A DNA stretch of 64,000 nucleotides from Psammoneis japonica (lineage: Eukaryota), in contig QPGO01000020.1 in assembly GCA_008632985.1 (NCBI GenBank), positions 496,001-560,000 on the forward strand, given 5' to 3'. The position numbers and the translations under genes are program-made. Of the stretch, positions 12,355 to 59,768 are shown piece after piece. Under the pieces are notes generated by a model. It was not told where the DNA came from and did not search any database. It worked only from the letters and a program-made list of their open reading frames with translations. The number at the start of each line of letters is the position of its first letter. The first letter of the stretch is position 1.

Positions 12355-13375
12355 CGTGCATCTTTGGAAGTCGGTTGAGGTGAAATGACGATTGCCTGTC
12401 AAAGCAGTCCGTGGTTCCGACGGAGATGCACCACGATTGCCAGCAAACTCGCTTCTTGCGTGTGCGCTGAATGCTTGTAAACGTCCAATACGGCAGTGAC
12501 CCGGTGCCAACCAACGCACTTTTTAGTGCAACGGTTGTTTGAGCAGGAACTCTGTGAGGGCCAGCCTCTGCTTTCTTTTTGAATGCACGCTGAACGCCTG
12601 TGGACGTCGTGGACTAAGACGGTGTGCTTGACACCCCGAAGGGCAGCCTTTTTCGTGAAGGTTGTAAGGTGGTTCAGACCGCTTGAGTTGCTCATTGAGC
12701 ATCTCACATCTGATCCCCCATAGGTTTAATACTCCTGTGGGTCGCCGGCCCGTTTTGTCAGCTGTGTTCTCCACGTCCCACAGCGTTTGAAGATCTGTTT
12801 GTTTCGTTTGCGATTGTGACCGTCTCGCTGAGTTATACTTTATAACTCACACTCTTTTTTCAGAATTGATTTCTATCATTTTGAGCAGACGATACGAAAG
12901 GAGAAATGCTACAAGGAGAAGACATGCATTTACAGTCGCATCTAAAGTGTTGAGACGCATCGGCAAGGGTTTATTCTCGAGAGTCGGGTGTACATAAAGG
13001 GTTTTCCTCGGGCTCCTTCAAGTATCTGTCATTCGAGTCACTCGGTTTGAGACGTGATAGTGAAAGCACATCTGCCTCCAATATTTACGTAATCCACACC
13101 GTGGATGGCGTTCTTACGCAACAGGCGCGTCTCTGGCCCTTGGCGGTTGACGTGTTCCCCGAGAAGCATCCCTCTCGCGACACTCCTACGGTACAAATGA
13201 CGCGACTCCCTGAGCCTTGGTGGTTACTTTGTTTGAAACTAGGATGCCGGTAGACAATCGAGAATGCCGCCCAGTCGCTCCATCCAATTTATGTAAAAGC
13301 GGTTCTGCGTTGCGAGCAGTCGACCCGAGTGCGTTCTCCAAGACGCAGCAGTCACTTCAATCAATTTCAACAAGC
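12355..13375 (+). repeat. Dispersed repeat copy A (homologous to ~22385-23570), less decayed
   Basis: Collinear blocks gattgcctgtcaaagcag, ttgccagcaaactcgctt, gggcagcctttttc, gtttgaagatctg, cattttgagcaga, tgcctccaat, tctccaagac. Confidence 0.85.
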
Positions 13376-13894
13376 ACTCGCAGTTTCAAGCCCGCCGCCC
13401 CAAGCCCATTCACCGTGTTCGCCCTTCTTCTTGTGGCTCCTTACATAAAACAGATCGTTTTCCGAAATTGCAGAGGGCTGCGTCAGGGCTGCACCATTTG
13501 CTGAGTGCTGAAAGAAGGCACAACGAAGGAGGCGATGCGGTCGACGCAGCGAAGCACCACCTCCCTCGTTTGAGTCATCAACGCGCTTTGGGTCCACCCA
13601 AATGGCCCTGAAACAATCCCTCATGCAGCAACTTGATGGGCAAGCAATGTCACATTCCCTTTTTGCACTTCGGACACTGGACCGATTAAAATGCATCTTT
13701 TAGCTGGCAAGCATCTCAAACGGTTTAACGCACTCGCAAGAATCCCAATTCTAGGTGCCACAGAGAGAAGTGGCATTGACACCACATGCCAGCAAAGGCT
13801 TTGGCTCTTTCATGGTCTGAAACAAGAAAAAATGCCGTGTTGTGAGAGACATGTGCAAACAGTCGCCAGAAAGCAAACGAGTCAGATTGAGTTC

Positions 13895-15882
13895 CTAACT
13901 GCGCACCTGGAATGCGGTGATCCATGCCTGCTCCCATGGCGTTCTGGTCAAACATCCTCTGCTCATCCTCTTCGCTCATCTCAATCGGAATTTCCGTCAC
14001 CAGGCACTCAGTCGTGAGAACCAATCCAGCGACACTGGCCGAGTTTTCAATGGCGTTAACAGCCACCTTGGCTGGGTCAATGACACCTCTCTCCATCAAG
14101 TCGCAGCATTCCAGGGTGGCAGCATCCCAGCCCCAACCAAACTTCAAGAACAGAGGACAACGAGAAGATTCCGTGAGGATGCATGACAACAACACTGGGG
14201 CAGCAGGATGCAAAGACAACTTGCTCCCTTTTCTTCCATGAGAGCTTGAATCTTGGCTAGAACCACGGCTCCTTCGACACCTACATTCTCTGCAACTTGC
14301 ATGGCAGGAGCCGACAATGCCTTGATGAGAATGGGAGCACCTTGCTTTTCATCGTCGCTGTCCATTGCTTCAATGCTCTTGTCACCCACAACGTTTTGGG
14401 GATGCACAAGGCACGATCCTCCGCCGGGTAAAATTCCCATTTCTCAGCACTGTCGACCAAGTTGAGGGCATCCTCGTGACGGAGCTTCTTGTCCTTCAGC
14501 TTGGTTTCGGTGGCGGCGCCCACTTTGATTCGTGCAATGCCACCGCCTAAGGCAGCGATGCGCTCTGGACACTTTTCACGATCAAAATCCGTGTCCACCA
14601 CTTCGGAATCCTTTCGAAGCTGCAGGACATTGCATTGATGGATTCTTCCTGTTTGCTGTCCGCAACAATCGCAGTGAGTTCCGTGGCTGTTCCCAACACG
14701 TCAATTGTGACAGAGTCAAGCGTGACGCCAACTTCTTCTGCAACAAAGGTGGCACCTGTGGCGAACGCAATGTCTTGTGTGTGCTCCCTTGCCTGTTTCT
14801 TAATCTGGGAGCCTCAATGGCAACCACGTCCAACACTCCTTGCATCTTGTTGACATTGAGAGCAGAGAGGGCTTCACCCGTTACGTCTTTCGCAACATCA
14901 AGATGGGGTCCTTGGTCTTGACCAATTGTTCCAAGAGGGGGACGACGTCAAGGACATTTTCAATCTTGGAGTCCGTGGCCAAGGCACGAGGATTGACCAA
15001 TTCTGCTGCTTGACGTTGTGGGCTTAAAGTGCACGGAGAAATGTGTCCGCTGTCAATGGTGAGGCCCTCAGTGAATTCAATTTCGTCCACCAGAGTCTGA
15101 GACTCTTCCACCACGGTAGATCCATCCTCTCCAACCTTGTCAGCAGCCTGAGCAATGATGCGACCCATGTCAACCGATCCAGAAGCAATGGTGACAATGT
15201 TCCTCAAATCGCTGATGCCAGTCACATCCTTCACAGAGGTTGCAATTCACGTGAAAAAGATGAATTGGGCATGCAGCACAAACACGATGCGGCACACAGT
15301 CGAAAGACGAGTGATGTTAAAATGCAAGAATGGCACAGTGCACAAAAGTTGCCGTGCCTGTGCCAACTCCTTGATTTCGTCCGAAACGATCCTCGTTTCC
15401 TTGCGAACACCTGTGTTGAGTGCGACGAGGTTGACTCCTGACGTGGCAGATCTCATGCCGTCATTGACAATGGCCTGTGTCATGATTGTCGATGTGGTGG
15501 TTTCATCGCCCGCCTTGCTGTCACTCTTGGATGCCACTTCTTGAGTGAGTCTCGCTCCAACATTCTGCCCGTGGTCTTTTAAGGGAAATCTCTCGCGCAA
15601 TCGTGACGCCATTGTTGACAACTTCGGGAGCTCCACAGTTGCAATCCAACACCACGTTGCGACCCTTGGGACCGAGAGTCACCTTGACAGCATTGGCAAC
15701 GGCGTCAATGCCGTCGACGAGGGCTTTGTGCGATTCTTCACGAAAGGTCACCTTCTTGACGTGAAGCGAGGTGTCAAAGGCAACAGGAGGTGTTTTGATG
15801 CGCGAGAGACAAACGCACTTGTGGACGACGACTGTGTCCGCACAATGGCCACCAACAGCGAAACGGCAATGGAAAATCTCAT
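13895..15882 (-). pseudogene. cpn60: Plastid-targeted chaperonin 60 (GroEL family) pseudogene with two introns, TpA-depleted
   Basis: Presequence [14 protein letters not shown]...[75 protein letters not shown]; many frameshifts. Confidence 0.93.
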
Positions 15883-16354
15883 GGTGTGATGGTCGTAAAG
15901 CGTGGCTTTCAACACACACTTAAACACCTGTTGTTTCACACAAGCATCGCGCAAAGTCAAATGCCGACTGTCAGCCAGTCACGTGCGTCCCTCAACGCAT
16001 TTTGGTTTGAAGCTCGTGGACAGCGGAAGACAAGTTGAGAAGCTCTAGATCCTTTTCCTTCCAGTTCGCCAGTCCCCACTGACAAGGAGCTTCTCCTTCT
16101 CGACGCGCCATGGTGTCATTCATGCAGAGTTCCACCGACTTGACAGAATCATCGAGATCGGTCGTCTCAACTGCAACACCAAGATTTGTCGAGACAAGGC
16201 TGAAACGGACGCCAAGAGGTCCCTCGGTTTGTTTGGGAGTGGGTGGAGGAGTGGGACCTGGCACAGGCCGCGGGGTCGGAATGGTGGGAGAAGCTGGTTT
16301 GGGTGTTAGACTACGTGGTCCAGTGCTTTATGATGAATTTAACTTTCGGCGAAG

Positions 16355-16520
16355 ACTGCACTTGTCAATTGATGTTTTGGCGATTTTGTCGCACGTACGA
16401 TCGGATGCGACAAATTTTGTCGGACGTGCGACAAATTTTGTCGCATCCGACAAACCCCGACAAACCCCGACAATGTACGACAAACGCCGACAAGAGCCGA
16501 CAAACGCCGACAGACGGACG
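16355..16520 (+). repeat. Left terminal/subterminal inverted repeat with palindromes (cgacaaattttgtcg) and ~10-bp cgacaaa repeats
   Basis: Read directly; reverse complement of ~22000-22220. Confidence 0.75.
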
Positions 16521-16778
16521 TTTGCGACACTGTCTCCACGAGATTCGCCCAGAGTGCGGCAGAGAGCTAGAGGCCCCAGCTGCCTGCTGATAAAAGGCAC
16601 AGCACAGCAGCGCACACCGGCACATTCCGCTCCACTGTGTAGAAGCGTGCGATGTTGTCCCGGTGTTGACGAGAGTGTGACATTCGGGGACATGGAACAA
16701 CAATGCAAAATTTCGAAATCAAAAAAATCTCATGCTCACACACTGCATGCAAATCAATCGTCTCGCATCTTCTGTTGT

Positions 16779-17741
16779 CCAAACATCACAGAGCTCCGAT
16801 CCGTGCTCCATTTGGTGCTGGACAGCAACGCAAACCGCTTCAAATGCCCAGGGATGCTTCCAAACTGCATGACGGAATCTGTCTCGTAACACTGCAAAGT
16901 TTTTAAGCCGTCCATTGAATGACTCATGCCGACAGCGAGCTCGGCTCTTGAAGTTCTTTAGCATCGGGGGATCAATGGAGCTTGGCAGCGCAATCTTCCT
17001 GCCCGAGCACCCCCCGTCAGCAATGGCACACTTCCCAACTGGGATTTTGTCTCGGAGCGCTTGGTTGAGGTTCCCGAAGGAGCTCTTCGCGAAGTCGCCT
17101 GTCGTGCTCATCCTCCTCACCCGTGAAAATTGTGAGATCATTTTTTCCACCTCTGAAGGGACCGGCAATCCACACACAGTTTGAAGAGTGGGTGTGGATT
17201 CCAATCTCGCCTTGAGAGCAGGACCATTGAATTTGTGAGACCAGTGCCGTCTGTCTTTGTTGAGCCGCGGATGCTTTTTCTCCCAAATCGGAAAGTCGGT
17301 CGTGTCCTCCGTAATTGCAAGCATTTCCGCATCTGGATCATCAATTGACGGAAGCCAAACGATTTTTTGAGCTTTCAATGCTGCGATTCGGCGAATCCAT
17401 TTCCACACATGCTCTCCCCGGGAGTGTCGCTCACAAACTCCAAAGCGCTTTGAAGCAATCTTGGCATTCTTTGGGCAAGTGAAAAGAAAGCAGTGCCCGA
17501 TCATAAACATCTTGAAGCCATTCTCTGACACCTCTTGTTCCTCGGGTCTTGCTGCATTGTTGTTTGTGCTGCATGGATCACGCCAGACATTGGCCACAAC
17601 ATCTGGGTTAGAGCCATGATGAGCCTTGAAGATTTCTCGGCTGGTCTTCAAATGCTTGGCGTCGGTGATGCTGTTGTCAAAATCGATGCGGAGGTGCTTC
17701 ATTCCACGCGTGAGCACATCACTCGCAGTGAGATTGTTCAT
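16779..17741 (-). pseudogene. Harbinger/ISL2EU-type DDE transposase, frameshifted and hypermutated
   Basis: DTTDFPIWE, WSHKFNGPALK, CVWIAGPFRGGKNDLTIF (other frame), IADGGC, RARCRHESFNGRLKNF..L.DRFRH, AFEAVCV.VQHQME. Confidence 0.88.
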
Positions 17742-18354
17742 TTTTGGTTGGAGATCCAGTTGGATGACATTGTGAGATGATTCAAGTGTGCTCCTTGTGT
17801 GATCTGGCAAAATCATCGCTGAAGAGGACTCGCTTGTGTGCATGTGCTTGGACTCGCCAGTGCACTTGCATGCGTTAAAACGGCAGAGCTTCACTTTTTT
17901 GCTTTCAAACTTTCGTGGGAAGTCCAACAATGTCCCAACTCGCATTCCCACAATTGGGAAAAAAGCATCATGATGGATTGTCAGGAGGGTGATCGAATTA
18001 AAGTGTCAAAAGGGAAGTTTGAGAACAAGCTCGCAACCTGCACCAAGGTTTGTCCGCAGGCGTTGCCACTCAGGTTCGATGACAGGTCGTCACCTGACGA
18101 CACGTTCTCAAGCGTCAGCTCGTTCATTTGGACGAGAATGAAGAGCTCCAGGGTCTTCTCGATCAAATCAAGCAGCTTGGCATTTATGACAGAGGGGAAC
18201 AATTCAAACAGGACGTTACACACATTTGTTTGGGCGACAGACGACGACGAGCGACAAGGAAGAGCAAGGACTGGATGCGAGGAGTGACAAGGAAGAACGA
18301 GGAATGTGTGAGGAAGAACAAGGAACAGGAGCAGGTGATAAAGAGTGGTGTGTT

Positions 18355-18470
18355 CTGCTGCTGCTGCTGCTGCCAGCACTGCTGCCACTTGCGAGCACTC
18401 AAGGAACAGAACTGCTGCCACCACTGCTGCAACTGCCTGCTGCCACTGCCACTGCTGCCACCACTGCTTG
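18355..18470 (+). repeat. Mixed CTG/CCA trinucleotide tract (inferred ex-(CTA)n)
   Basis: ctgctgctgctgctgccagcactgctgcca...ctgctgccaccactgctg...ctgccactgccactgctgccaccactg. Confidence 0.8.
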
Positions 18471-18504
18471 CGGCACGGTGCAATGCCAATCAAGAAGCAC
18501 CGGG

Positions 18505-19658
18505 CTAAAACTGAACATTCGCGTTGGAGACCTGAATGTTGCTGGCACCCGCGGCCTTGGTGCCTCCTTCTTCGGCAATCAACCACCACTTGACGCATCC
18601 AGTAATGTCCTGCTTGATGCCTGCAGTTGCCTCTGTCCATTTAAGAAAGACTTCCTGGCCCCTGACGTTGGGTTTCGTCTGAGAAGATGCGTTGACCAGC
18701 TTGGTGCCACGTGGGAAAACCAACATCCAGCATTCACAGGGGTCTTGAGCGGATGCCTTGAGATTCGCATTGAGGTGAGCCTCCTTCGCGACGTCCTTTT
18801 GTGGCGGTGGTGGCAGAGTCTGCTTTTTGTTGGTTCCATCGTTCATCTTGTCATGAATTTGTTCAATGTCCTTGAGCTCAGAGCTCACAGCCGGCCCCTT
18901 GATGCATGCAACACGGCCATGAACACTCGACGGCACAGAATCCGCTCCTGGAATGAAAGCAACCCACTCGTTTCTGTCGAGAACAGAAACAACACGACGA
19001 ATCTCGAATCCCGACCTGTTGAAGGACTGGTGCGTGATCTTGTCAATGTGGACAACTTGAAAGCCACCGAGCCTGCAGTTGTCGAGACCCACAGGAACCC
19101 AATGGGGGTTTTCCAAAGAACCCAAATCAGTTTGAGCAATGAGGTTATCAACAATGGATGCTGACTTCGAGGGAGTCGTCAACACACGGCTGGCGCGACG
19201 AGGGGTCAAGCCAGCCATGCGCGACACATGAGCCACTCGAGGTGGAGACCACAACACGTCATCGTCGTCGTCATCATCACCCAAGTCCACCAATGAAATG
19301 CTGTCAACCATTTCATGAAGCTTCCTCGACTTTGTCCTCAGCTTTATGGTTGGCCTCCTCGGCCTCCTCGGCCTCCTTCATCAAGTGTTCCTCGAGCCTT
19401 GGAGGGTGTCGGCAGCTGGCTCCACCTCACACTTGTGCAACAGTTCGATGTAGGAGGTGATCTTGGACTTCTTGAAGTTGTCACTTGTTTCTGAAACCAA
19501 CGGTGTTTCTTCACATTGCCGTCCATTCATCCTCCTTTTCCGTAGAAACGAGGGTTCGAATCACAAATGTCCTTGAGTTTGGCTGCAAAGAGCCCGCCAT
19601 CGTGCTCAAGGTCCTGGACCAACTGCGCCCATTTCACGTTTTTCTTGACTTCCTCCAT
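18505..19658 (-). pseudogene. Frameshifted accessory ORF inside the transposon, function unknown
   Basis: Protein-like segments in consecutive frames (MEEVKKNVKWAQLVQDLE...; 268-aa ORF 18505..19311 with no Tyr). Confidence 0.45.
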
Positions 19659-20088
19659 GATTTTACATGAGCTGAGTGAAAGTGTAACATGACAAAAGAC
19701 CGTTGTGGCGTTTTGGGATTGATGTCGTTGGGTTTTTGAACTTAATGTCGTTGGGTTTTTGAACTGCGCAAAGAGAGAAATCATTCGCGGAAGAAAAATT
19801 CCAAGAATTTGAAGTTTCACTCCAAACGAAATTTGAAATTTTGAAATGTTAAAGTGCCCGTGTGAAGATTCACATTGAAATCATGGAAAGTTCTTAAAAA
19901 CCGACCAGGATTGGATTTGTAAAAATTTCAATGTCGTTGCGTCTGCACTGTCAGATTTGAATTGACCCCCACAGCGATCGACCGCAGCTGGGGTCTGCTA
20001 GCGAGAGCTGCTCCGTCCCAATCCGTTGCGACTCATGACTCACTCACAATGTCGTGCGCATGGCACAGGGCCTAATTTGTCTGCAACG

Positions 20089-20722
20089 ATGCCGAAACCA
20101 AAGAATTCTGAGTGTGTTGACTGGACAACTAGTGAGGCAAAGATGGTGCTATATGCCGATTTGCAGAGTGGCAGGTTGTCACTGAACGAGAGCGAAGTGA
20201 CGGCCGAAGAAGCATGGGAGCGTACAGAAACCATGCTGCATTCAAAGGCATCGTCATCTTTGAACAATTCAACCTGCGCCTGCGAGATCATCGTAAACAA
20301 ATTCTGTTGAAGAGAGAGAAATCGAATGATCAAATGAAGGCATTGATCCATGATCGACGGCTCTGTCCAAGGAAGGACGTGAACAACCGTGGCGAGCCGG
20401 TGTGGGACATTTCACCAGCAAAAGAACTCCTCAAACAAGACCTCTTGCAGAAGAAGCACTTGCACATGACACCATCCGAGCTTCGCGCCTCAAGACCAGA
20501 ATTCAAATCTTCTGCAAGACAAAGTTCAAGGAGCACATCCATCAAGCAGTCCGCAAGGAGAAATTCATAAACTGCCTGGAGCAAGTCCGCAAGAAGAAGG
20601 AGGAGAAGGCAAAACAAGACAAAGAGAAAGCAATGCAAGCGAGGATAGAGCTGCAGAGAAAGAAGGAAGAAGCTCGAGCAAAAGAGGAAGCAGAAAGAAA
20701 CGGCAAACGCAGATGCAACTAA
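20089..20722 (+). pseudogene. Frameshifted accessory ORF inside the transposon with an internal two-fold W..S.AK..L..DL motif
   Basis: DWTTSEAKMVLYADLQSG... and VWDISPAKELLKQDLLQK..MTPSELRASRPEF..FKEHIHQAVRKEKF across three frames. Confidence 0.5.
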
Positions 20723-20910
20723 AAGCAGCAGCATTGCCGCAGCAGCAGCAGTGGCAGTGGTGGCAGCAGCAGTGGCAGCAGCAGCAGCATCCATTCATTA
20801 GTTCTACAGTGGCAGCAGCAGCAGCACTAGAGCATTCTTTCCATTCCTTGTGGCAGCAGCAGCAGTGCAGCAGCGAGGAGCTCCTGGCAGCAGCAGAGGC
20901 AGCAGCAGTG
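20722..20910 (+). repeat. Mixed CAG/TGG trinucleotide tract (inferred ex-(TAG)n)
   Basis: cagcagcagcagtggcagtggtggcagcagcagtggcagcagcagcag. Confidence 0.85.
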
Positions 20911-21457
20911 GTCAAACTAAAAAGAGCACTTGCAGACAAGGCAGAAGCAGAGATTCTACAACAGTTAAGAAGTGGAGATTCTACAATGCCAAATTGTCAG
21001 TTCTGCTGCCAGACAAACAGTTGCAGTGCCGAAGACGACAAGTTGCCAACGGGAACGCCGTGCCCCCCCCCCTGGCTCTTTCAAGACAATTGTGACACCA
21101 TTGCTGCATCTCATTTCCCTCAAATGCAGCAACAGCACCACATCCCAAAGGCACCATAGAGTGTGCGAAGTGCAATGCTTTTGTCTTGGACAAACAAAAT
21201 GTCGCCAGAAACCACAGGAGGGAAGCACCCGTCACTGTCCCCATGAGAGTCGCAAGTTTCGAGGTGGAAAATCATTCCACCATCGCCCATCATAGTCTCC
21301 CCATCCCAGTCCATGCAAGGAAGAGCAGAGAGAATTCTGGGACTGCTGGCGAGCAAATCACCAAGCGAACATGCAATCAACACCACTGATGGGCAAACCA
21401 ACTCGGGAAATGACATGGGATCCCCAAACCGCACGTTCAATTCGTCCAACAGAAGTG

Positions 21458-21916
21458 TCAAACAGGAGCTGCGCAGCTCAACTGCTGAGCTGATGATTGA
21501 GCTTGGAACCCAATCTTCAAATGTGGTGTCACCGTCAGCGGCACGCATTGATAGAAATGGCAGAAATGCTCGGGATGGAGGAACGGCAGTCCGTTGTCGA
21601 TGAGCTGGTTAAATTCGCCAGTGTTGGCATGGAAACTCCGCATGAGGTCACACATGTCTTCAAGCAAGGAAAGGACCTCCATCCATCGCTTGATCATCAG
21701 TTTTTTTCCCACGCCAATGTTGTCTCGGAGATGCGGTCGGGTGCTTGCAAGGCGTTTCCACGCAACATGTGTTTCTCGACCAAGGCACCAGCGCACAGCC
21801 TCGAAACGCCCCAGACTCTTGACATCAAGGAATGTCAAGATGTGATCTTGCAGCATGCTGTTGTGGATGAAATGTTGGAGACCGCCGAGAGCGGCATGAT
21901 CGTCGCTTTGCATCAT
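21458..21916 (-). pseudogene. Possible F-box-like gene fragment carried within the transposon
   Basis: LQDHILTFLDVKSLGRFEAV....W resembles the F-box pattern (I.sFL....L.r...V.k.W). Confidence 0.35.
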
Positions 21917-21999
21917 CGTGCAAAAGAGACACAGTGTCAACGGAGACGTTGGCGGTTGCTGTGGCGTGTGCAGTGGGGGGGGTGGGTGTTTCGTTCGTG

Positions 22000-22220
22000 A
22001 GTCGTCGTGTCGTGACGTGACGTGACGTGTCGTGACGTGTCGTGTCGTGTCTTGTCGTGTCGTGTCGTGTCGTGTCTTGTCGTGTCTTGTCGTGTCTTGT
22101 CGGATGCGACAAAAATTTGTCGTATCCGACAAATTTTGTCGGATGAATTTTCGTCGATGACATCGATCGCCAAATTCTGTCAATTGCCCCACTTGTTGAA
22201 ACGACATCGCCAAAGTGCAG
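22000..22220 (-). repeat. Right terminal/subterminal inverted repeat: (gtcgt/gacgt/gtctt)n pentamer array plus cgacaaattttgtcg palindromes
   Basis: Read directly; mirrors 16355-16520. Confidence 0.75.
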
Positions 22221-22384
22221 GTTGGTTGTTAATGACATTGATCATTTTGTGACTTAGTTGAACAATGTTTCTGTCCCGTTTATCGCCAACCCGGACATTT
22301 TGTCGCAATTCGCGTCTTTTCGTGACAAATCATCAATTCATTTAAGAAATTGTCGCCAAATGCGACAAAATGCCGTGTGTCCCT

Positions 22385-23570
22385 GCGCATGTCTTTGGAA
22401 GCTGCCGCTGGTTGTTTGCCAGAGGTGAAATGCTGATGTGATGATTGCCTGTCAAAGCAGCCCGTGGCTCCGTCGGGGACACGCCACAATGTTGCCAGCA
22501 AACTCGCTTTGTGCATGTGCATGGAGTGCTTTTGCAGGTCCAACCATGGAGTGGCATCATGCATCACAGACATCGCCGCCCAGCCAACGCACTTTTTGAG
22601 TGCTTGTGCTGTTTGGGTGCTCTGGAGAGCCCCCCAGCTGCTGCATTTTTTGAAATGCATGCTGAGCACCTGCTGACATCCAAGACCAAGATGGTGTGCA
22701 TGACAGAGGGCAGCCTTTTTCATGAAGGGTTGTGAGGCAGCTCAGATCGCCACTTCAGTTGCTCTTTGAGCACTCTTTGAGCACTCTCTTTGAGCACCTT
22801 GCACACTCACACATCTGAGCTCCCAAGGCCTTCAATGAGCTGCATTCTCCATGCCCCACAGTGTTTGAAGATCTGCTTTGTTGCACTGGGGTTGCTGTGA
22901 TGGCCATCTTCTTGCTGAGTTGCCACACTTGACAGCTCGCGCTTTTTTCAGAGTTGACTTCCATTGTCATTTTGAGCAGATGCAAGACATGAACAGAAAA
23001 ATGCAACAGAGAGAAGCCATGATTCTGCAGTCATGTGTGCAGTTGCTGGTGATGTTGACAGGGCAGCAGCACTCTCACAGCTCTTGCCAATGTTGTGTGC
23101 AAAAAAGTGCAAAAAATGCCGAGTCAGATCAGCAAGGGTTTTGAGGCATGATGCAAAAAAAAAGCACGTGTGCCTCCAATCTTCATCCAGTCCAAACCAA
23201 AGCAGCAGACAATGATTTTGCACAACAGGCGTGTTTCTGCATTCAGTGTGATCAACCAGGCTTCTCTTCAAAGCTGCTCCAAGCATCTGACTCTCAGTGG
23301 AAGTGAGTCAACCTGCAAACTTCTTGTGATGCTCCTGCTCAAATGGCACACCGTGAGCTGTTTTTGGTTGCTCCACTTGATGTGCTTGCCAAGGAACATG
23401 AGAGTGGCCAGCAAATGCTCTTTTGCACAACTCAAGGGATTCTTCAAACTCTGATGGCTGGCCCATTGTATTAAAGTGATGGTGGCCGGCACACTGCTTT
23501 GCAGCAGTTTGACCCAAGAAGACAGCACTCTCCAAGACACGGCAGCCACTGCAGCCAATTGCAACACTTG
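22385..23570 (+). repeat. Dispersed repeat copy B (homologous to ~12355-13375), heavily depleted of both TpA and CpG
   Basis: Collinear shared blocks with copy A. Confidence 0.85.
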
Positions 23571-24668
23571 TGTTCACAGAGCTGCTGCCACAAGCCTGTG
23601 ACAACAACATGTGTGAGCCAAACAGTGAGCATTTCATGATTCCCCATGTGAGAGCCACTTTCTGCAAAGAATCACCTGCAGACAAGGGGCACAGCTTGTG
23701 CTCTCATGTCCTCACATGAAGCTGCTGGCTGTTTGGCACTTGTGTGACTGCCACAATTGTGCTCAAGAACCTGAGTCTGGACATGGAGATCAGGTGCTCT
23801 TGTCAATGACATGCAGCTGGCAACTCAGCCAGCTCTGCCAATGTGCACAGAACATCTGAGACAGCTGTTTTCAAATGTCTTCATCCAGCGACATTGCACG
23901 ATGGGCACTTCCCCAAAACTCCAGAGAAGGGTGGTGCCAACGCTGCTTCATTCAGAGGGTCCCAATCTTGCCTCTTTGTTGGCTTGTTGTGGTCATGGAC
24001 ATTTGACACCAGACATCCTCTTTGGACCATTGAAAGCTTTCTGACATGTGAGTTTGCTGCTTCGCTGTTCTTGTGGGCACACATGCGCCAGGCTCGTCAA
24101 GCTGTGACTTCTCCTGTCAACATTGTGGGTTTCTGCAAAATGGCACACAAAGGCAGCACATGATGAAAGAAGTGAGTTTTCTGTGCATCTCATCTTTGAT
24201 GAGTTGCTCAACATTCAACCTTGTTTTTTCTTCGTCTTCCTCATTTTCATTTTCATCTTCTCTTCCTTTTCTCAGCTTGGGCCACCTTGATTGACAGACA
24301 CTCTCCAGATGACCAGCTCACTCTTGCGACATAAATCCATCTTTAGAAAATGATGGCGACGGACAGTGGTGACCTTTCGACGGAATGCCGCTCTGCGGGC
24401 ATTCAACAGCTTCAGAGCAATGATGCAATGATGTCGTTGCTTTGCATGGCCTCGGAATTTTTTGTTTTTGATTTTTTTTCTTGTGGTACTGTGTGGTGTC
24501 TTTGGAAATCATTTTAAAGCTACGTCTCCGTAGGAGACATAATCGTATTCAATCTGTGTTGAAATGTACTTACGCCTATTTTACGTGCTTCTATACCATG
24601 AAGCCGGAATTGCGGGTTCCACGTTCTCTCAGAAATTTGTCAAGCAGCCAGCAGAACGGAGCCGCACC

Positions 24669-26223: not shown

Positions 26224-26529
26224 ATGATTTGGTACGCTTTTCATTGCGTCCTTTCTCACTGCTGATCGACGATGCATGGGGCTTGAATCATACTATAATG
26301 TCATTTTTCACGCGATTAAAGGCTCTGGCAAGGGAGTCTTCTGCTCTACTTCTAGCTAGTCTCACATCTTACCTGCTGTGTACAAACAGTATATCCTATA
26401 GAATGTCACAAATCTAGTCGCTTGTACCCTTTTGCTTGCGCACCTGCATACCGGTATCACCACTGTCGACACTAAAGTAAGTAACACACCGCATACTCTC
26501 TAGCTAGCTGCTTGATGACTCTCTACAAC

Positions 26530-28290
26530 GCTCGTGCGCAAGAAATTGACGGCGTCTCCAAATCGAACTACGACTGACCAGGATTCGCACAGCAACAGCT
26601 GCCACTGGAGCCAGTGGAGCTGGCCAACGCAGCGGACGCAAAAAGCTGTCCGCGCGCGACACACACCTCTCAGTTCGGCTCCAACAATGTCTGTGACCTT
26701 GGCAACTCTCAGGCTAAAGGAGTGCACTCCATGCTTGCCTTGGTCAGGTCCTGTTACAATGGCAGTCCAGAGGAAAGCAAAGCTGCTTGCAAAGAATTGG
26801 GAGAACTTCTCTGTTCTTGCCATCACGGTGCGGCAAAGAAAGGGTGCTGTCTTTGCATTGGAAGAGAAAAACTTTTCACTTTGTTCAACAGCAACAAGGA
26901 AAACACCCATCTGATCAAGTGCTTGACTCTGCTCCTCAAAAGCTCAAAAGGTGGAGGGCAAAGGTCACCCATGCCTGCAGAGGCAGCACCATGAAGCCAT
27001 GAAAAGCAAGTGTTGCCAAAGCAAGCAATCCCCCCAGAAGCCACTTGCTGTTTTTTGAGCACATCTTGGCTGGAATGTTGCACTTTGTTCCCAACACTTG
27101 ACCTGCTTCAAAACACAGCAATCCTGCCAGCGAGAGAATCAAATTTTGATTTTTTGCAAGAGGGGCCAACAAGAGACATTGAAGAGTGTTTTTGTGGGGC
27201 AGAGGGTCACAGCAGCATCTTGAGTTGTTTTTGGGTGTGTGCAATTATCTGGCAAAGGCCAAGTCTGCCAATCCCAAAATGTGCCAACTTTGCAAATTGA
27301 GCACTGGACAGATGACAAGCAATGGTGTGTTCTTGACAAAGGTCTTCCAAAAACTGGCGCACTTTGCATGGTGCAGCTCATTTGTTTTTTTGACAAGTGT
27401 GCATCAAATGTGCTCAACAGCAGACCTGCACACTTGCAGTGCCCTTGGCCAGCTCAAAAGTGCCAGGCAGGCAACCAGATGACTGCCTGACAAACAACCA
27501 TGCAAACAATGAAAGCAGTGCCCAATGAAAGAAGAGTCAACATGTATGGGGAGCTTTTTGGCTTTCTTTTGAAAACTTAAATCTCACCTCATTGTCATCA
27601 TGGCGCGGATGGTTGGGTCTCACATGCGCTGTTGCTCTTGTGGCAGTGCTGGTGCACTGACAAACCATGTTTTGTGTGGAGGGAGTTTCTGAATTTTTCC
27701 AAATCAGTGATTTGGATGGCATGTGGTCTGACCCTGGCTGGTGCAGTTGCTGGCAGAGTGCGGCAATGCACGGTGTGAACAGCAACCTTGCAATGTGGAG
27801 ACACCCAGCTGCGTGGCTGCGTGCACAGCATGAGTTGCTGCTCTGCAGGACATCAAGCTTGCAAGATGGTGACTCTCTCACAATCTTGCAAATTGACAAG
27901 GTTGAGGAGGTTGTCATTTGTTTTTTCATTGTCACGAGCCAGTCTGGCAGTGTTGTGTTTCTTTGTTTTTGGGGCGTTGTCGGCGATGCTCGGCTTTGGG
28001 CACATTTGCTTGGGGGGCAACTCCAACACCCCGCACATTTTTCTAGCAGAATTTTTGCACTTTTAGAGCCACAGGCAGAGATGTTGCCTCACACAAAAAA
28101 CATTGCCATTTGCTTTGGCTCACTGCTATTTTTAGAGTGTTGGCTTCAACCGCCGCGCTGATCAGACCGCGCCCGCGCCCGCGCGCTGCCCGCATCACCG
28201 CCATGACGCTCGATGCCCGCAACCGCAACCCGCAACGCACAGCCCATGGTACTTTCTCCCCTTTCTCTCATCACCCACCACCAGCACTCT
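26530..28290. other. TpA-depleted decayed insertion between the two RING-like paralogs
   Basis: TA nearly absent, CpG low in the core, CpG-rich ends; no identifiable protein. Confidence 0.65.
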
Positions 28291-29672: not shown

Positions 29673-32600
29673 TAATAACATGCGAACACACTTGTTCTGT
29701 GCCGACTAAAAGTTACATTTAATCAGATACACTCTTCTCTCTTACCGTAGAGAGCAAGTGCAATAGTCGCTAGCAGGGTCCACTCGCTGGACTAGTTCTG
29801 CTGGAGCTCCAGGGAGATCCGTTCGTTTACCATGCAACGGACAGTTGTGATGGTTCGAGGAATGCGGCGTTTCGTTTCGTTTTCAGCCAGGAGGGTCCGC
29901 AAAGTTTGGAGATGAGGCGAGGATGGGGCAGACATACAAATAATGGAGGTGCGGCACTCGCTCTAATTAGATCGGGAACCTGTCCAAATTGAAACAGACG
30001 CAAGGACAAAAGTCCGGTTTCAACGGATTTCCGTTGACCACAATGCTTTTTCACTGGCCTTGAATGTTGCATTCATGTTGAGCAATGAAAACTTGCTCTC
30101 TTTGTGGCATGGTGTTTGCACAAAATGTGCAAGTCCACAACTTGCATTGCCAACATTCATCGTTGAACATGCACATTTCCCAGTTGCTCGCAACACGCCC
30201 AAACTGCAGCAGCACAAAGTGGTGCATGCCGCCGGGTGCCGCGATGTCTCAATGCGCCTTTTGCCGATTTTCCATTTTTGGCACACCTTTTGCCAATTTT
30301 TGGTTTTCTTGCTTCCTTTTTGATGACAAGCGCGCAAGTCATCCCACAAGCTTGGCCCCGCTGCGCGCCTGCAGGTTTGCGGGTTTGTCAAAAGTGCCCC
30401 AAAAAAATTGGCTGTGTGCCGCTGCCTCGACTCTCAGCAGCACTTTCGCCAGCCTTTTGCTGATTTTGCTGCCTGGGCAATGCTCCAACACACCCCGCAA
30501 GCTTTTTCCTTGCAGATCGCTTGCTTGGTTGCGCCCTGGTTGAGTGCCGAGCACTGAGTGGGTGAGCCACGCAACACCCCGCTGAACATGCACAGCACTC
30601 ACCTCTTGCTTTTCTTTGATCTGCGCCCATTGTGCTGCAGAAAACTCTGGAGCATGGAGCAGCTTCAGCGGCAGTCTGCAATCTGCTGCTGCTGGGAAGA
30701 GCAGCGCTGAGCCAAGACCGCTCTTCCGCGAGTGGCCAACCTGCCGCTTTTGGGAAGAGCAGCATTGCTGGGTGGTGAGCGCCAGCAACAAGCACAGCTG
30801 CGCTGCCACAAGCAGGTGGGGTGAGAACACCTGGCAGCTGAGTGGGCAGCACAGCCCTTTTTGGCATGCATCAAAAGACTTGCTCTGCACTCCAAACTCT
30901 TGGCCACATTCGCCCCCATTTCCAGCGCTGGCCTCTCTGCTTGCTGCATCTTTTCTGGGGTTTGCACTGCTCTGCACAGGCTGATGTGGAGTGCACTTGC
31001 TCTGGAGCAGATGGGTGGGGAAAGCAAGCTCTGCTTTGTTGTCATTTGGCCAGGTGCACCCTGCTGGCAACGGGGAAGGCATCCAAGTGTTTGTCTGCTG
31101 ACACCGCGCAGACGCTCTTGCTTGCCTGAGCAAACTTCCACTGCTGCTTGTTGAGTCCCGTCCCTTGGCAATGCTCAGCATGACATGAAAAGATTTGTCC
31201 ACACCGCATTTTCAACATCTCCTTTTCTCACCTTTTGCTCATCATTCTTTCTTCTTGCTCCAGAAGACACAGCATTTTGAAAAGGTTGGTGGCTGGCACA
31301 TGGAGCACAGCCGGGTGTGTGCACTTGCCAGGAAGCAGCTTGCCCACAAAGGGAAGGGCTGCAGCTGGCTCTTGGGGCAGGGGCAGAGCTCTGCACCATT
31401 TGTGCTGTTGGCATTGGAGGCATCTCCCGTCATCGTCAAAGCTGTGGCGCTCCTTGCTGAGCAACCCCGGTCTGTTGAGTTGAGCCTCTCAACTTTTTTT
31501 CAAGGCTTTGTTTGCTTCTTTCATTTTTGGCACAGTTTTGGCAATGTCCCCGGCTTGCTTGAGCTCCTTTCAACATGCCATGAAATGGGGTGCATTGTTG
31601 TGCATCACATCAATTTTTGGTCTCTTGCCATCAAAAATTTGACATTTCACCCCGCTGAATGCGTGGACAGCTGTCCGCTCATTCTGCTTGTTGGCTGTTG
31701 TCACTTTGACAGCTGGCGCAGCTCCAACAGAAAAAAATGATTTCTGTGGGTGGCTCAACCAGCTTGATGATGCCTCTTTTCTGATTGAGTTTTTTTGCAA
31801 TCCAGAAGGCTGGTGCAGGTGACTCTTGGTGCTTGGGTGCAGACTTTGGTGCCGCCAACTTTGTGTGCATCAACTGTCCTCAACACTTTGTCTTCTGGGC
31901 TGCTCTCTCAGGCAATGCCCTTGATGTCAAACTCCTCCCAACCATTTTTGAAGTCTGCAGTTGTCTCCCACTTTGAAGGTGGTGCTTCAAGCAGCTCTTC
32001 CCATGACACACTGACCTTCATTTCTTGCTCAACTTCCCAGCCACTGCAGCAGTTGGCACATTTTGTGGGCAGTCTGAAAACATGAACACTCATGTCATGG
32101 CTCCAATGGTGAACAAATTTATGCAACAAAGCAGCAACAAACCTGGGAGAGTGGCTGAAGGCCCAGAGCAGCTGTCTCACTTTTTGACAACATCCTTCAA
32201 GTGCAGTGGCTCCATGAAGGCACTTGAAAAGCGGGGCTCAGTGTGAGTCAGTGCCAACCTGAACACAGCATGACATGGAAGTGTGCCCCTTTTGTGTGTG
32301 ACAAAGCACCGCCTTGTGCAGGTTCCGTGCTTTCTGTTGAAACAGTGGCTTGCTGATCTTTGCATCAAGCACATTTGCAAGAAGATTTGCTGGCTTCATG
32401 AGCTCTCTCTCCAGCTCTTTTGGGCCCAGAACAATGCAACGGACCTGCGTTCAAAAAGAGTTCCAGGGCAATGTGTTGATTTTGTCTTTGCTGCAGGCAC
32501 TCTTTTGCAGTGCTTCCTCAACAACCTCAGTGATGTTCCCGCATGGGACAAAGAAAACATCAGATGATCGAGCCATGAACACTCCAAATGCACCATGGTT

Positions 32601-32699
32601 TTTTGACAGAACCTCCCTGAGCCAAGTGAGTGTGTGCCCAATGTCTTGTTTTGTGTGGAGACCATGCTGCAGCTGTGTTGGCTCATCTTCAACATTTGT

Positions 32700-34195
32700 G
32701 TCACACTTGTCCCCATCATCTCCATCTTGATTCTCAGCATCATGGGCTGCAGCTGGTGGGGAGCATCTTTGTCATCATTGCCATCATCATCTTGATCTGA
32801 TGCTCTCTCCTGTGCTCTTCTCATGTGTGCAGTGAACTCTGCCAGCACTTGTTGCTGTTTGGGTGCAAAGTGCAAGTTTCTGACTTCCCGCGTGACCCCT
32901 TTTGTGCACCATCTGCAATGGTGTCCTCAGTGCTTTGGTTTGACATTTTTGGCACAACTGCTGCAGGTTGCTTGGCTGTGTCCATTCAAACTTTGACAGC
33001 AGCATGATTGAAAAATGCCACGTGCAGATGCCGGCTCTGCTGCACCCAGAATTTGTTGGTTGTGCACAGCAACAATGAGTCATTTTCCTTTGGTTCCTTC
33101 ACATCTGGTGGTGGAGTGGCTCTTGGGTCCACAAAATGCATGGCAGTCATTTTCAAGCTCATTTTCAAGCATGACATCATTTGAGTGTGCAAGTCAGTGG
33201 CAGCGCGGCAAAACAGTGCTCCTCATCAACAGCAGCTTGCTCCAATCAAACAGTGTCACAGTCAGCTGTGCATGTTCACTCCCATCCAAAAGGAGCCATG
33301 GCTGTGTCATGAAGACCAGCTGTTGTTCTCTCCACAACACCTTGCTCCCTTTCAATCTGAGCCAGCTTCCTTTGTCTGCATCAACCTTGGAAGCCACTCT
33401 TGTCTTTGGCATTTGCACACACTCAGCCTTGTCATCTCCATCTTCATTCTTGATGTCAGGTGGCAGGGCTGCAGTGGGTGGAACATCTTCATCATCGTTG
33501 CTGTCATCTTGATTGGACACTCTCTCCTGCACTCTTCTTGCATGGCAGCACATGGTGAAATCTGCTGGTGTTTGTTGCTTTTCAGGTGCAGCTCAATCAA
33601 AAGTTTCTGGCTTCCCACACAACATCTTTGGCCCCATCTGCAACAACCACATCCTCAATGCTTTGACTCAACATTTTTGGCACAACAGCTGCAGGCCACT
33701 CAACTGCATTGATTCAAACTTTGATGGCAGAGTGCAGTCAATGGAAATGCCACAAGGAGCTGCTGACTCTGCTGCACCCAGAAAAGCAGCCTCTGCAGCT
33801 GCCACACAGAGACTTGTTGGCTGTGTGCAGCAAGAACAATGAGTCATTTTCCTTCAGCTCCTTTGTGTCTGGCAGTGGAATGGCTCTTGGATCCACAAAA
33901 TGTGCAAAAGCCATTTTCAAGCATGACATCATTTGAGCGCATGAGTCAATGGCAGCATGGCAACAGCTCTCATCATCAATGGTGGCTTGCCTCCAATCAA
34001 ACAGTTGCAGTTGGTTGTCTTTGTTTGCTCCACATCCAAAAAGAGCCTTGGCTGTGTCATGAAGACCAGCTGCTGCCCTCTCCTCCACAACACCTTGCTC
34101 CTTGACCATGTGCTGCAGGCATGTTGCATTGGCCAACAATGCTCCAGTCTGAGCCAGCTTCCTTTTGTCTGCATCAATCTTGGAAGCTGCTTTCT
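32700..34195 (+). repeat. Diverged tandem duplication (~32700-33410 and ~33420-34195)
   Basis: Shared acatttttggcacaac, ctctgctgcacccagaa, aacaatgagtcattttcctt, ttttcaagcatgacatcatttgag, ggctgtgtcatgaagaccagctg, tctgagccagcttcc. Confidence 0.88.
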
Positions 34196-35908
34196 TCATG
34201 AGTGCAGACTCCCCCAAGAGAAGCTTGAGTTCATCAAGCAATGGCAACGCAAAAATGCTGTTTTCCAAATCTGGTGCAGTCACTTGAGCAGTGGGGGGGG
34301 GGCACCCTTGGCCCTGACAGTCCACTTGGCATCAATTGACAATGCGCCCCAGTTGTTCTTGGCACATTTGATGAGGATGTCCTTGGAGGTGGCATCTGCA
34401 ACTTGCTCGGCAGAGAACGTGATCGGCAGCTTGAGAATGTCAAGACATGCAACAAATTTGAAACCTGTTCAAGGCTTCCTTGTTGGAGCCCATTTCACCT
34501 TGCTCTTTGTCAGCTGATGCCACACCACCCAAGAAAGCATGCTCCATTTCTTTTTCTGTTTCTGGAATGAAGGAATGGAGAATGGGCTCCTTGCCATTGC
34601 TGTTGTCTCCTTTGCAAAATGAGCACTCATCACAGCACATCTGTCTGCTGTGACAACATTTGGGCCTTCAAAGCCATGCACTTGACTCTGTTGGTCAAGG
34701 CCATGCAGGCTGTCCCCCACTTTCAATGGGGTTGTCCCCACAACAAGTCAGAGCATCAGCATCTGTCCAAACTCATTCATTGCCAAGTGCAGACCAACAA
34801 AACCTCTTGCACTCTCAGCCAGGAGAGCGACCTTTCCAGTTTTGACAAAATGGTCCCCAGACAGGAATGGGCCACCATTTGTTGTCATTTTGTGGTGACA
34901 GTGAGAAATGCTGGATTCAATTTCTAATGTTGTTGCTTCCAATGGACAGATCACAGATGGCACCTGCATTTCCACCCACTCATCATCAAAAGTCAAAATG
35001 CAAAGCTCAGTTTTTGATGTGACTCTCTTTCCCAACCAAGTTGTGAGCAAAACTGGCATGTCCTTGCCATGTCTTTGCTTTCACAGCATGTGTTGCTTGC
35101 ATCTCTCAGTCAGTGACTTGACAAGCCCAAACCTGCTCATGTGCCACATGACAGCTTAGATCTCATCTTGTCAGCAAGCACCCATTCTTTGATGGCACCT
35201 TCAGGGGCAATTTTGTGTCCATTTTGCTGCCACCAATTTTGAGCATGCTCAGGTGATTGTGACAAGAATGATGCAGAGTCATGACCACAGAATGTGCGGC
35301 TCTCTCTGTTGCTTGTGCAGCGGCTCTCCTTCTGCACTTGTGTGCACATGCACATGCCCAACACTGGCTTCATTTGGATGCTCCCCACATGCATGCCTGG
35401 CACAATCTGAGCATCCAAGATGGCTGACACACTCAGTTTCTCCAGGATGAAAAAGGCAGCAGGGCCTGCATTCTGGCCAAAACAGTGACCGCCAACAACC
35501 CCCCAGCCCAAAAAACATGATGGGTGGCAGCTCTGCAAAATCCTCACAAGAGAGTGGCATGGTGTGCTCTTTTTCCACATTTTCGTGTCCTGGACCAAAA
35601 TGAAAGTCATTTGCTGTGTCAGAAGACAAGCCAACCATTGAAGAGCAAAACATCTCTGATGCCAGCTTCCACATGGCTCATGTTTGCCATTCAGCTTGAA
35701 CCCAACATGCTTTTTGAGATGCTCTGACAACTTGTTGCACACTTTCAAGGTGTGTGTGCCATCTTTCACAAAAGGTCATTCCTGTCTTGTTGCGAAGCCT
35801 TTGCTGTTCCATTGGAAGCACAAGTTTCTGCTGCCCTGTTTCCATGGTGACTCCTGGCAGCAGCTGCAGCGCCAATGGCAAAACTGTTCTCCTCTGCTGT
35901 TTTCTTTG

Positions 35909-35973
35909 CTGCACTCATCATTCTTGCCACTGTGTTTTCTGCACTCATCATTCTTGCCACTGTGTTTTCTGCA
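35909..35973 (+). repeat. Perfect 30-bp tandem duplication (ctgcactcatcattcttgccactgtgtttt x2)
   Basis: Read directly. Confidence 0.9.
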
Positions 35974-37682
35974 AACCAGTTGTCCCTTCTTGTGGCTTCA
36001 TTTCTTGCAGAGTGTGGGTTGTCGACCACTGCACAGGACTTGAGCCTTGATTCATGTTTGTTGCCCAGATGCAAACAAGCACATCAAAGTTCAGAACATG
36101 GGCAGATTGCAAATTCATTTGTGTGCTCATTGCCTGGATTTGTCCAATGATGTTCTTAAAGTGCACACCAGTGGCAACCTTTGTTCACTGGCAACATTTC
36201 TGCAATGGCAACCCTGGTTCACGTGCGACATTTCTGCATTGCTCAGAATTTGACATCATCTGACCACTGTTCATTTGATTTTCTTTGTGTCAAAATGGAA
36301 ACAACACACTCAATGATTTGAGTTTTGGCCTCAAGTCAAACAACCTTTTTGGGTTGTGGGCTTGTCGTCATTCAGCCATGATCATGAAGTCTTTGCTGAC
36401 AAATGGACAAACTCACAGCTTGATTTTTTGCTTGTGTTCTGCAGCTGCTGCTTCTGTCAAACAAGATGCAAGAAAAGGCAGGTTGAGTCATCTCCAGATG
36501 CAGCAGAGTGGTGTGCAGGCACTGCAGCTCAGCTGCACAAGAGCTCTCAGCAAGCCACAGTTTTGAAAGCAAGGGTGCTTGCCATGGCCGCCACAATGCC
36601 AAAACTGTGTGTGCGATGATGAGAGCAGTGAGGTGGAGCAATGGAGCAGACAAAAGACAACATTGTTGAATGAAGCAAGAGAAAAAAGTGGTGGTCTGAA
36701 GAGCAGTGGTCAACAGAGTGAATGAGCTGGGAGAAGAATGAGCTCTCACACACAAAAATAAGATCCAACACTTCTGCACAAGTTGATCAAGTTTTGTGTG
36801 CACTTGCATGCTTTGGCAAAAGAACACAGAGTGCAGTGAAGAGCAGTTTTTGCCTTCGCCCTCCTCCTTGTTGTGTTTGTTGGTGCAGAGAAAAATCATG
36901 TGATCAATGGGCTCTTGCGGCAGAGCCTGTTGTTGGATGGGCTCAGGCAGTTGCTGCCAACTTCAGATCTGACAAGATTAAGAAGGTGGGCACACATTAG
37001 ATAACCCAGAAAACATTTCTTCACAATTATTCAAGCGTCACGGGCGTGCGGAAATTTGGAAGCAGGAAAAAGCATTAGATGCTTCTCCCGATGACGACGA
37101 CTAGTCAATCTTTTTGCTTGCCGATGTTACTTGCAAAAATTCCATTCGGTTCCGTTCCATGCTGGAGGAGTTTCTGCAAAGTCTCTGCAAGAATGATGAT
37201 GCTGGAGTAATGTAGATTGTGTGGCAATTCTCAACAGCGAACAAAACGAAGACTTGTTTTGCAGCGGAACGGTTCTTTACAAATTACTATGGCAATACAA
37301 GAATCGTACAGACTTATTAAGTGAGTGAGCTACCCCACTAGAGAGAGCATGGCTATATATTATATATTGTTGAAGCTCGGCATGATTTTTCATTACGTAC
37401 TCATTTCTCTTTGTGCCTTCGTTCCTACAAGATTTTTCTCGATAGTCCAAACGGTTGCGGTAGCTTGCACCAAGACGGGACCAAGGTGACTGATTTAGGA
37501 ATGCGTGTGCAATGGAAAATCGAACGGAAAACATTTGGTGAAACAGTGGCGACAAAACAAATCGGGCCTGACAATCCTACCTCGCATCGGTTGTGTCATT
37601 AGAAATACTTTAATTCCAAAATGCGAAAAGAAAGTTTTCAAGGGAGCAAGAGGCGAGTACGTATAAAACAAGCGCAAGACGA

Positions 37683-55570: not shown

Positions 55571-55819
55571 CTCTTTTGCTCTTCTACTGTACGAGTCAAG
55601 GTTCAGTGTCGACAACGCGAAGCATGAAAGTGATGAAGGCAGAAGATACAAATTATCGAGATCGCGGAGAAATTTGGAAATTGGATTCAGAAAAGAGCCG
55701 AGCATTCGGGGGTATCCCCCCATCCATACCCCTAATATTATGTTTTTTATATGCTTTAATTACTTTTATCTTCTTTGGGACAAATAATTTATACCCGTAC
55801 TCCTATTTTTCGCTCGTCG

Positions 55820-59760: not shown

Positions 59761-59768
59761 TCACCCCG

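Follow-up and report, generated by a model that had tools for sequence, protein, structure and literature searches.

Structure of the cpn60 copy

The 64,000-nucleotide (nt) stretch of Psammoneis japonica nuclear DNA analysed here (assembly GCA_008632985.1, contig QPGO01000020.1, positions 496,001 to 560,000; hereafter the window) carries on its minus strand a damaged copy of a plastid-type cpn60 chaperonin gene, which lies next to a transposon. An earlier note, made from the letters of the window, had suggested that a mutational process acting at TpA dinucleotides had struck this gene copy. The copy was compared with related proteins, with orthologous loci from metagenomes, and with contigs from three public runs of one sample of the same organism (X1, X2, and X3), in which 0.56, 0.13, and next to none, respectively, of the sampled 31-letter words of the window are present. 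Run contigs were aligned to positions 13000-17000 of the window at 80% likeness; X2 is transcriptome-like in appearance, because its contigs are spliced, although no RNA run is listed for this DNA. The parts of the gene are as follows.

13817-15882, minus strand: plastid-type cpn60 pseudogene, a whole-gene copy with introns; ATG at 15882, 3' end of the coding sequence uncertain
15358-15882, minus strand: exon 1; frameshifts near 15797 and 15586; NYGAPE has become NCGAPE, and GDGTTT has become GDETTT
15229-15357, minus strand: intron 1, retained, with the GC donor GCACGG at 15357-15352; X2 contigs join 15227 to 15357
14225-15228, minus strand: exon 2; frameshifts near 14897, 14790, 14623, and 14444; contains GHISPC
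15031-15048, minus strand: GHISPC where chaperonins have GYxSPY; TAC to CAC and TAC/TAT to TGC, orthologs having Tyr at both places
14142-14224, minus strand: intron 2, retained, with the GC donor GCAAGT at 14224-14219; X2 joint from 14141 to 14225, ends CT..GC on the plus strand
13907-14141, minus strand: exon 3, the C-terminal part of cpn60, placed by sequence alignment
13817-13906, minus strand: third spliced interval, with an intact GT donor, GTGCGC, that contains no TpA; X2 joints 13816/13907 and 13806/13907

The N-terminus of the encoded protein is signal-like and includes SAF, and the reading frames share 75-80% amino acid identity with diatom CPN60 proteins; the match to PF00118 scores 29.5 bits, below the curated cut-off of 34.3. 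Alignment to P0001 with frameshifts allowed requires the six marked above, and the stitched path contains no in-frame stop. One of these regions, around 14623, is reproduced by an X1 contig (record 4, 14509-14729). A functional Cpn60/GroEL protein has an unbroken frame, GDGTTT, and GYxSPY; the copy has none of the three and is a pseudogene of the family. A tblastn search of the whole 64-kb window found no second cpn60 copy within it.

The amino acid changes are unevenly distributed. At 345 of the 412 positions on which 90% or more of 20 orthologs agree, the copy is unchanged, and yet all five conserved tyrosines have been lost, three to His and two to Cys. The other 62 changed positions were classed as 11 TpA-type, 11 CpG-type, 16 other transitions, 18 transversions, and 8 multi-base changes, with priority given to the TpA and CpG explanations where a case was ambiguous. 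The loss of both tyrosines from GYxSPY, which the earlier note had pointed out, can be read directly from the minus-strand segment at 15048-15031 (agc gga cac att tct ccg tgc, S-G-H-I-S-P-C); among the 20 orthologs, Y236 is present in all and Y232 in 19.

The splice donors tell a similar story. Both intron starts are GC in the window, and the X2 splice joints mark both as real sites; the junction 15227/15357 has three ambiguous letters, and a shift of one yields GC..AG. Donors were compared at ten orthologous loci. Introns at the position of window intron 2 occur at four distinct genomic loci, with GTA in every case (GTACGT in L078; GTAAGT in L070, L022, and L064, the last being the same as L065). 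At the position of intron 1, L078 has GTGAGT. The gene call of the relative P0010 continues into intron 2 with V-S-I-L, compared to A-S-C-L in the window. As the ortholog donors are GT, and mostly GTA, we take GT to be the state of the family, and the GCA of the window is the outcome predicted by a change of TpA to CpA. For the parent gene itself, GT donors are what the orthologs predict.

The depletion of TpA is not confined to these codons and donors. The exons of the copy retain 10 TpA in 1764 nt (rho 0.10), compared to 71.6 on average and never fewer than 24 (minimum rho 0.40) in 61 ortholog coding sequences. CpG is normal (96, against an ortholog mean of 95.3). The 61 sequences were kept from 80 metagenome loci, 19 having been dropped since their longest open reading frame (ORF) fell outside 1650-1900 nt; all 80 are around 70% identical to the copy at the DNA level and were used as orthologs only. 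Of 12 TpA that survive in the copy, eight are in the context YTAR and none is in RTAY.

A parent-type gene and the direction of change

Both the copy and a second form of the gene are found in the runs. Copy-type sequence is carried by X1 record 3 (13455-14021; 2 differences, depth 50) and by X1 record 4 (1 difference, 0 gaps, depth 33). Other contigs are parent-type pieces of cpn60, 86-96% alike to the window, and those of X2 are spliced exactly at all three intervals. At two of the six frameshifts of the copy, parent-type contigs have one letter more (14445 and 14896); the letter at 14896 restores ATT GTT (Ile-Val), the ortholog state, and at 14445 some of the X1 depth is without the extra letter. 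Tyrosine is supported by reads at 15636 (C>T; TAT, compared to TGT in the window), at 14478 (G>A; TAC, compared to CAC), and, in a comparison by eye, at an X2 loose end at 14791 (TAC, compared to CAC). A parent cpn60 that lies elsewhere in the genome, is expressed, and keeps its TpA is the best explanation of these observations. Searches of longer and near-length proteins with a 121-residue ORF returned no parent protein; identity to the query reached 80% and 85% at best, the latter over only 32% of its length.

Contigs and window differ at 418 places in all, of which the 40 best supported, a non-random selection, were compared site by site. Within these 40, the window has CA or TG where the reads have TA at 29 sites (15 CA and 14 TG), TG or CA where the reads have CG at 5, and some other kind of difference at 6; the reverse (window TA, read CA or TG) was not seen once. 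The context is equally clear in the same selection: an A follows at 15 of 16 sites with C in the window and T in the reads (background 0.34, binomial P ~1e-6), and a T precedes at 14 of 15 sites with G in the window and A in the reads (background 0.33, P ~2e-6). Totals over all differences, written as window > read, lean the same way: in X1, C>T 87 and G>A 96 against T>C 37 and A>G 47 (183 against 84) and, in X2, C>T 61 and G>A 60 against T>C 22 and A>G 28 (121 against 50). A search for the parent and a table of the differences by context were the checks that the earlier note had named; the spliced parent-type gene and the one-way TpA bias confirm its observation and support its interpretation overall.

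At 13074, 13098, 13358, 14007, 14389, 15636, and other positions, all aligned X1 contigs differ from the window. Together with the share of window words present in X1, this means that run and assembly are not letter-identical, for which strain or haplotype difference, variants dropped from the contigs, or ongoing mutation are possible causes.

Such mismatches raise the question of artefact, namely that a base modification of repeat DNA was misread by a long-read base-caller and that the indels are assembly errors. The word share of X1, the places where every aligned contig disagrees with the window, and several frameshifts that lack a contig check would all fit. We nevertheless regard an artefact as very improbable. 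Contigs of depth 33-50 that match the window over 221-567 nt, with 0-2 differences, carry the TpA-poor sequence, X1 contains both states at 15 of the 29 TpA-type sites (among the best 40 of 418), and the region of the 14623 frameshift lies within an identical contig. Moreover, the loss of TpA is graded by flank, and old CpG decay is found alongside it in the cores of the TpA-poor blocks described below.

The duplicated segment and its transposon neighbour

The features to the right of the gene, and the domain to which all of them belong, are as follows.

15883-16322, minus strand: co-duplicated upstream host sequence of about 440 nt, with the end of an open frame at 15995-16327; X1 and X2 loose ends at 16321/16322
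16350-16750, no strand assigned: high-copy repeat with a seemingly perfect palindrome at 16401-16450 and short CGACAAA-type repeats; summed depth 737-4122, compared to about 66-100 further right
16722-18005, minus strand: PIF/Harbinger-type (DDE_Tnp_4) transposase relic, matching proteins of about 300 residues
13300-24500, no strand assigned: TpA-poor domain containing the cpn60 copy, the transposase relic, and an older, CpG-poor part at 22434-24500; 2.4-9.3 TpA per kb, compared to 38.5 in normal parts

The window is homologous to parent-type contigs from 13000, or further left, up to 16321/16322, beyond which the X1 and X2 contigs continue with other sequence. As about 440 nt of upstream DNA, including the end of another open frame, were duplicated together with the gene, the copy is a segmental duplicate made at the DNA level and not a retrocopy. 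The earlier note had argued against a retrocopy from the retained introns, and the three introns, the upstream sequence, and the near-equal CA and TG products (15 and 14 among the best 40 of 418) bear it out. The duplicate of the host locus would thus measure at least 3.3 kb, made up of the whole cpn60 gene with its introns, the 440 nt or so upstream, and at least 0.8 kb downstream, and would abut a PIF/Harbinger-type DNA transposon at 16321/16322. We also considered the same locus with an insertion. Neither the parent sequence beyond 16322 nor the repeat sequence left of 16321 has any match in the window, with up to three mismatches allowed, and this arrangement is unsupported because neither flank was found.

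The ORF at 16722-18005 has 1191 protein matches, the best at E 4.6e-62. In eight of nine scanned homologs, PF13359 (DDE_Tnp_4) was detected at E up to 0.01, seven of them above the Pfam cut-off; the ORF itself gave no Pfam match at E up to 0.01. The relic has no tyrosine in 428 codons, compared to 3.15 per 100 residues in its homologs, and none of four conserved tyrosines is kept. Judged by these matches, the neighbour of the cpn60 copy is probably a DNA transposon struck by the same TpA process. Both the adjoining transposon and the reach of the process into host-derived sequence had been anticipated, the latter being evident from the few TpA left in the cpn60 exons. The repeat at 16350-16750 is probably the terminal region of the transposon. 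It has an inverted partner 5.5 kb away in TCGTG-type repeats at 21980-22117 (22048-22117), and the two may be the transposon ends. For the ORF at 18190-19161, an Atlas look-up gave no usable match.

TpA-poor blocks in the window

The window as a whole is a mosaic in which normal sequence, with 38.5 TpA per kb, is interrupted by six blocks that have 1.0-11.2 TpA per kb and an excess of CpA and TpG.

1-500, ~13300-24500, 26500-28000, 30000-37000, 46000-48500, and 56000-64000, no strand assigned: the six TpA-poor blocks, delimited by TpA per kb
12381-13372, plus strand: repeat A, TpA-normal; collinear with A' at 22434-23566 (TpA- and CpG-poor), direct, about 10 kb apart, about 67% identical

The block at 30000-37000 has 7 TpA in 7 kb. 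The domain that holds the cpn60 copy has a sharp right edge (24487-24515) and a fuzzy left edge (13295-13450), the latter within sequence to which parent-type contigs remain homologous. Some TpA-poor parts are also poor in CpG (22434-24500, 27000-28000, 31000-37000, 46000-48000, and 60000-61500; 12.9-26 CpG per kb, compared to 56.9). CpG is normal in others (13300-22433 and 56000-60000), which means that the TpA process either outpaces the decay of CpG or extends beyond it. In the TpA-poor blocks with normal CpG, the loss of 30.3 TpA per kb is set against a gain of 36 CA plus TG per kb.

Survival of TpA depends on its flanks. Relative to normal sequence, the density of survivors is 0.025-0.04 for RTAY, 0.08-0.16 for the mixed class, 0.28 for CTAG, 0.45 for CTAA/TTAG, and 1.03 for TTAA; that is, TTAA is not depleted at all. 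The mixed class yields both products, at roughly 60:40, and the 29 read-supported sites (from the best 40 of 418) show no product bias in any flank class. A strand-specific model, in which only TAY or only RTA would be attacked, was tried and does not fit, products at these 29 sites being evenly split in every class. CA and TG are balanced in six of eight TpA-poor blocks; in the region of a copia-type element (60083-64000), the plus strand has 113.8 CA and 76 TG per kb.

This element (RVT_2 at 63014-64000, E 6e-7; several long ORFs within 60083-62895) and the DDE_Tnp_4 transposase relic are mobile DNA that lies in TpA-poor blocks, as does the host-derived gene copy. TAA and TAG are nearly absent from the blocks (e.g., 16083-19377 and 30082-36962), and long frames are open in all six frames. 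A Pfam scan of 150 ORFs of at least 90 residues from the blocks gave RVT_2 as the only credible match, the rest being weak and at chance level. There is a consequence for annotation: in blocks free of TpA, with few TAA and TAG stops, ORFs are long and spurious and transposons become unrecognisable, and gene callers would over-predict.

The last block has a sharp start, with 25 TpA in 55501-56000 and none in 56001-56500; some 250 nt away, downstream on the minus strand, an intact multicopper-oxidase gene begins (53708-55759). The ORF of this gene has protein matches, diatom proteins among them, of up to 79%, the best named being from Fistulifera solaris (71%).

An RNA route to the same signature can be imagined, in which an ADAR-like enzyme hyperedits a transcript from A to I, and reverse transcription and integration follow. 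The preference of ADARs for a 5' U would yield a TpA bias, a point discussed in a preprint on the chlorarachniophyte Bigelowiella natans (Mettrop et al., bioRxiv 10.64898/2026.01.13.699255, 2026), and the window does hold a copia-type reverse transcriptase. A retrocopy of this kind would be intronless and changed from A to G on one strand; the cpn60 copy has kept three introns and flanks that do not look transcribed, its products are divided almost equally between CA and TG (15 and 14 among the best 40 of 418), and the balance recurs in six of the eight blocks. The signature also runs on over a DNA transposon and intergenic DNA as one continuous domain, and A in other contexts is unedited. We therefore consider the RNA route highly unlikely.

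A further alternative is a defence triggered by homology, in which the cpn60 segment would have been mutated because it is a duplicate and not because of where it lies. The segment does duplicate an expressed gene, and repeat A' is mutated relative to A: A' has 11 TA-to-CA/TG changes and A has none, and CG-to-TG/CA changes number 17 in A' and 4 in A. (Over the cpn60 copy, the summed X1 depth is about half of that at 13000-13400, which makes additional copies probable.) However, fungal repeat-induced point mutation (RIP) mutates both copies, and the parent cpn60 has no reverse changes (0 among the best 40 of 418). The domain edge at ~13300-13450 falls within sequence homologous to the parent (X2 record 11, 13315-13744; X2 record 9, 13000-13222, ~98%). 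An internal control is provided by an inverted pair of TRM5/TYW2-type genes in normal sequence (37683-38913 and 43746-45059; ~1.2 kb, 85.5% identical). Both frames are open, 49 and 56 TpA are kept, and only 12 of 85 substitutions are at TpA, split 8 and 4 between the two. As this pair is untouched, duplication alone is insufficient. In B. natans, too, a single-copy region is targeted, according to the preprint (10.64898/2026.01.13.699255). A trigger by homology thus seems to us unlikely.

Interpretation

We consider it likely that the cpn60 copy is a duplicate, made at the DNA level and lying beside a transposon, that was destroyed by near-saturating, TpA-specific transitions over a domain of about 11 kb. 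This one domain would take in the gene copy, the transposon, and what lies to the right of them, and within it A:T-to-G:C transitions at TpA would have proceeded on both strands almost to saturation, turning Tyr codons into His or Cys and GTA splice donors into GCA and leaving the CpG of the gene copy nearly untouched. The process would act on DNA in place. Since the parent and the unrelated duplicate pair are spared, targeting would be by position or by inserted unit and not by homology; the target may be transposon-bearing, probably silenced, chromatin, or inserted units as such. Spreading from the transposon and targeting of a whole inserted unit, with the gene as a passenger, would fit the data equally.

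The likeliest candidate for the agent, by analogy, is a TadA/ADAT2-like adenine deaminase that would act at T-A, fastest in RTAY and slowest in YTAR, with TTAA above all resisting it. The chemistry could be different, with the thymine of TpA modified (hydroxylation of the 5-hydroxymethyluracil (5hmU)/base-J type) and mispairing with G, and no deamination of adenine. T-to-C on one strand is A-to-G on the other at TpA, and the RTAY preference is just as symmetric, so both would leave the same trace. 5hmU:A pairs are not known to be strongly mutagenic, and we think the thymine route improbable. The preference for RTAY over YTAR offers a concrete handle toward the enzyme.

A number of points weigh against this interpretation. 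At 14 of the 29 TpA-type sites (best 40 of 418), the window base is in no X1 contig; the objection is weak, since contigs drop minority variants, but differences between strains, or mutation still in progress, would be compatible with it. X1 covers only a little over half (0.56) of the sampled window words. X2 has 52 transversion places, and the conserved codons show 18 transversions and 16 other transitions, compared to 14 TpA-type changes; so many non-TpA differences point either to an old copy or to the joint alignment of several diverged ones. The sites compared one by one are a selected tenth of the differences, and none lies at 15032, 15045, 14223, or 15356, so that the parent's bases at the donors and at GYxSPY are not among them; for the latter we infer Tyr from the 20 orthologs. 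It is not settled that the window copy is a paralogue rather than a degenerate allele of a rearranged locus: the parent locus is in several pieces, and its upstream 22-mer is absent from the window. Finally, TpA is self-complementary and sequence by itself cannot, therefore, tell whether A or T is the base attacked; what we say of agent and targeting is a reading of sequence patterns.

More tentatively, and with rather less than even confidence, we suggest that diatoms possess a heritable genome-defence mutator, a DNA adenine deaminase aimed at transposon-bearing chromatin domains, which would erase TpA (RTAY fastest, TTAA spared) throughout sharp-edged domains and kill host gene duplicates that have landed there. 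If this is true, a process shared by Rhizaria and Stramenopiles would be an old and widespread RIP-like system of opposite chemical direction. A hypermutated copy and its live parent in one genome also provide a natural calibration, from which spectrum, context, and saturation can be read directly.

Comparison with known systems

Fungal RIP is a functional analogue, and the likeness lies in irreversible, dinucleotide-specific transitions in repeats, in pseudogenised genes within or beside repeats, and in sharply bounded, skewed blocks; RIP, too, leaks into single-copy neighbours. The direction is opposite: RIP turns CpA into TpA by C-to-T change and mutates both copies, whereas here TpA is destroyed. 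Neither hallmark is found in the cpn60 copy and its parent: the parent is spared, and so is the TRM5/TYW2-type pair, which lies in normal sequence.

ADAR hyperediting and APOBEC3 likewise give deaminase-type clusters in mobile elements, and ADARs prefer a 5' U. Those enzymes act on RNA or on reverse-transcription intermediates and on one strand; here both strands are affected, the substrates are intron-bearing DNA and a DNA transposon, and only TpA is changed. The TadA and ADAT2-ADAT3 enzymes take as their target an adenine that follows T or U (U33-A34 in tRNA) and are a plausible class for the agent, to which the pattern seen here would link them. DNA activity has been reported for some of them, as cited in the B. 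natans preprint (10.64898/2026.01.13.699255).

The closest known case is that of B. natans. As described in the preprint, reported in April 2026, A:T-to-G:C hypermutation exclusively at TpA was measured in mutation-accumulation lines in two integrated viral regions, of nucleocytoplasmic large DNA virus (NCLDV) and virophage DNA, and an ADAT2-like candidate enzyme was proposed (10.64898/2026.01.13.699255). Going by that account, the two cases share changes that are nearly all A:T-to-G:C transitions and occur only at TpA, yielding CpA and TpG (other kinds are also present here, as expected in an old pseudogene). Both are confined to blocks, with the loss of TpA offset by a gain of CpA plus TpG, and in both, the sequences poor in TpA include genes for DDE endonucleases and reverse transcriptases.

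There are also clear differences. The host there is a chlorarachniophyte, and here it is a pennate diatom (Stramenopiles). Depletion goes far deeper here, with rho of 0.0-0.1 compared to 0.45 given for the NCLDV region, and the victim is a duplicated host gene with a live parent as an internal reference. A flank preference is seen here (RTAY fast, TTAA spared), and a term search of the preprint's main text found none, nor any mention of diatoms. The process was measured in mutation-accumulation lines there and is deduced from sequence comparison here. Our literature searches found no report of TpA hypermutation in diatoms. TpA-specific hypermutation, so far the subject of one preprint on viral inserts in a chlorarachniophyte, thus extends to a diatom and to host-derived DNA, and the P. 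japonica locus adds a new case to this very recently described kind of hypermutation.

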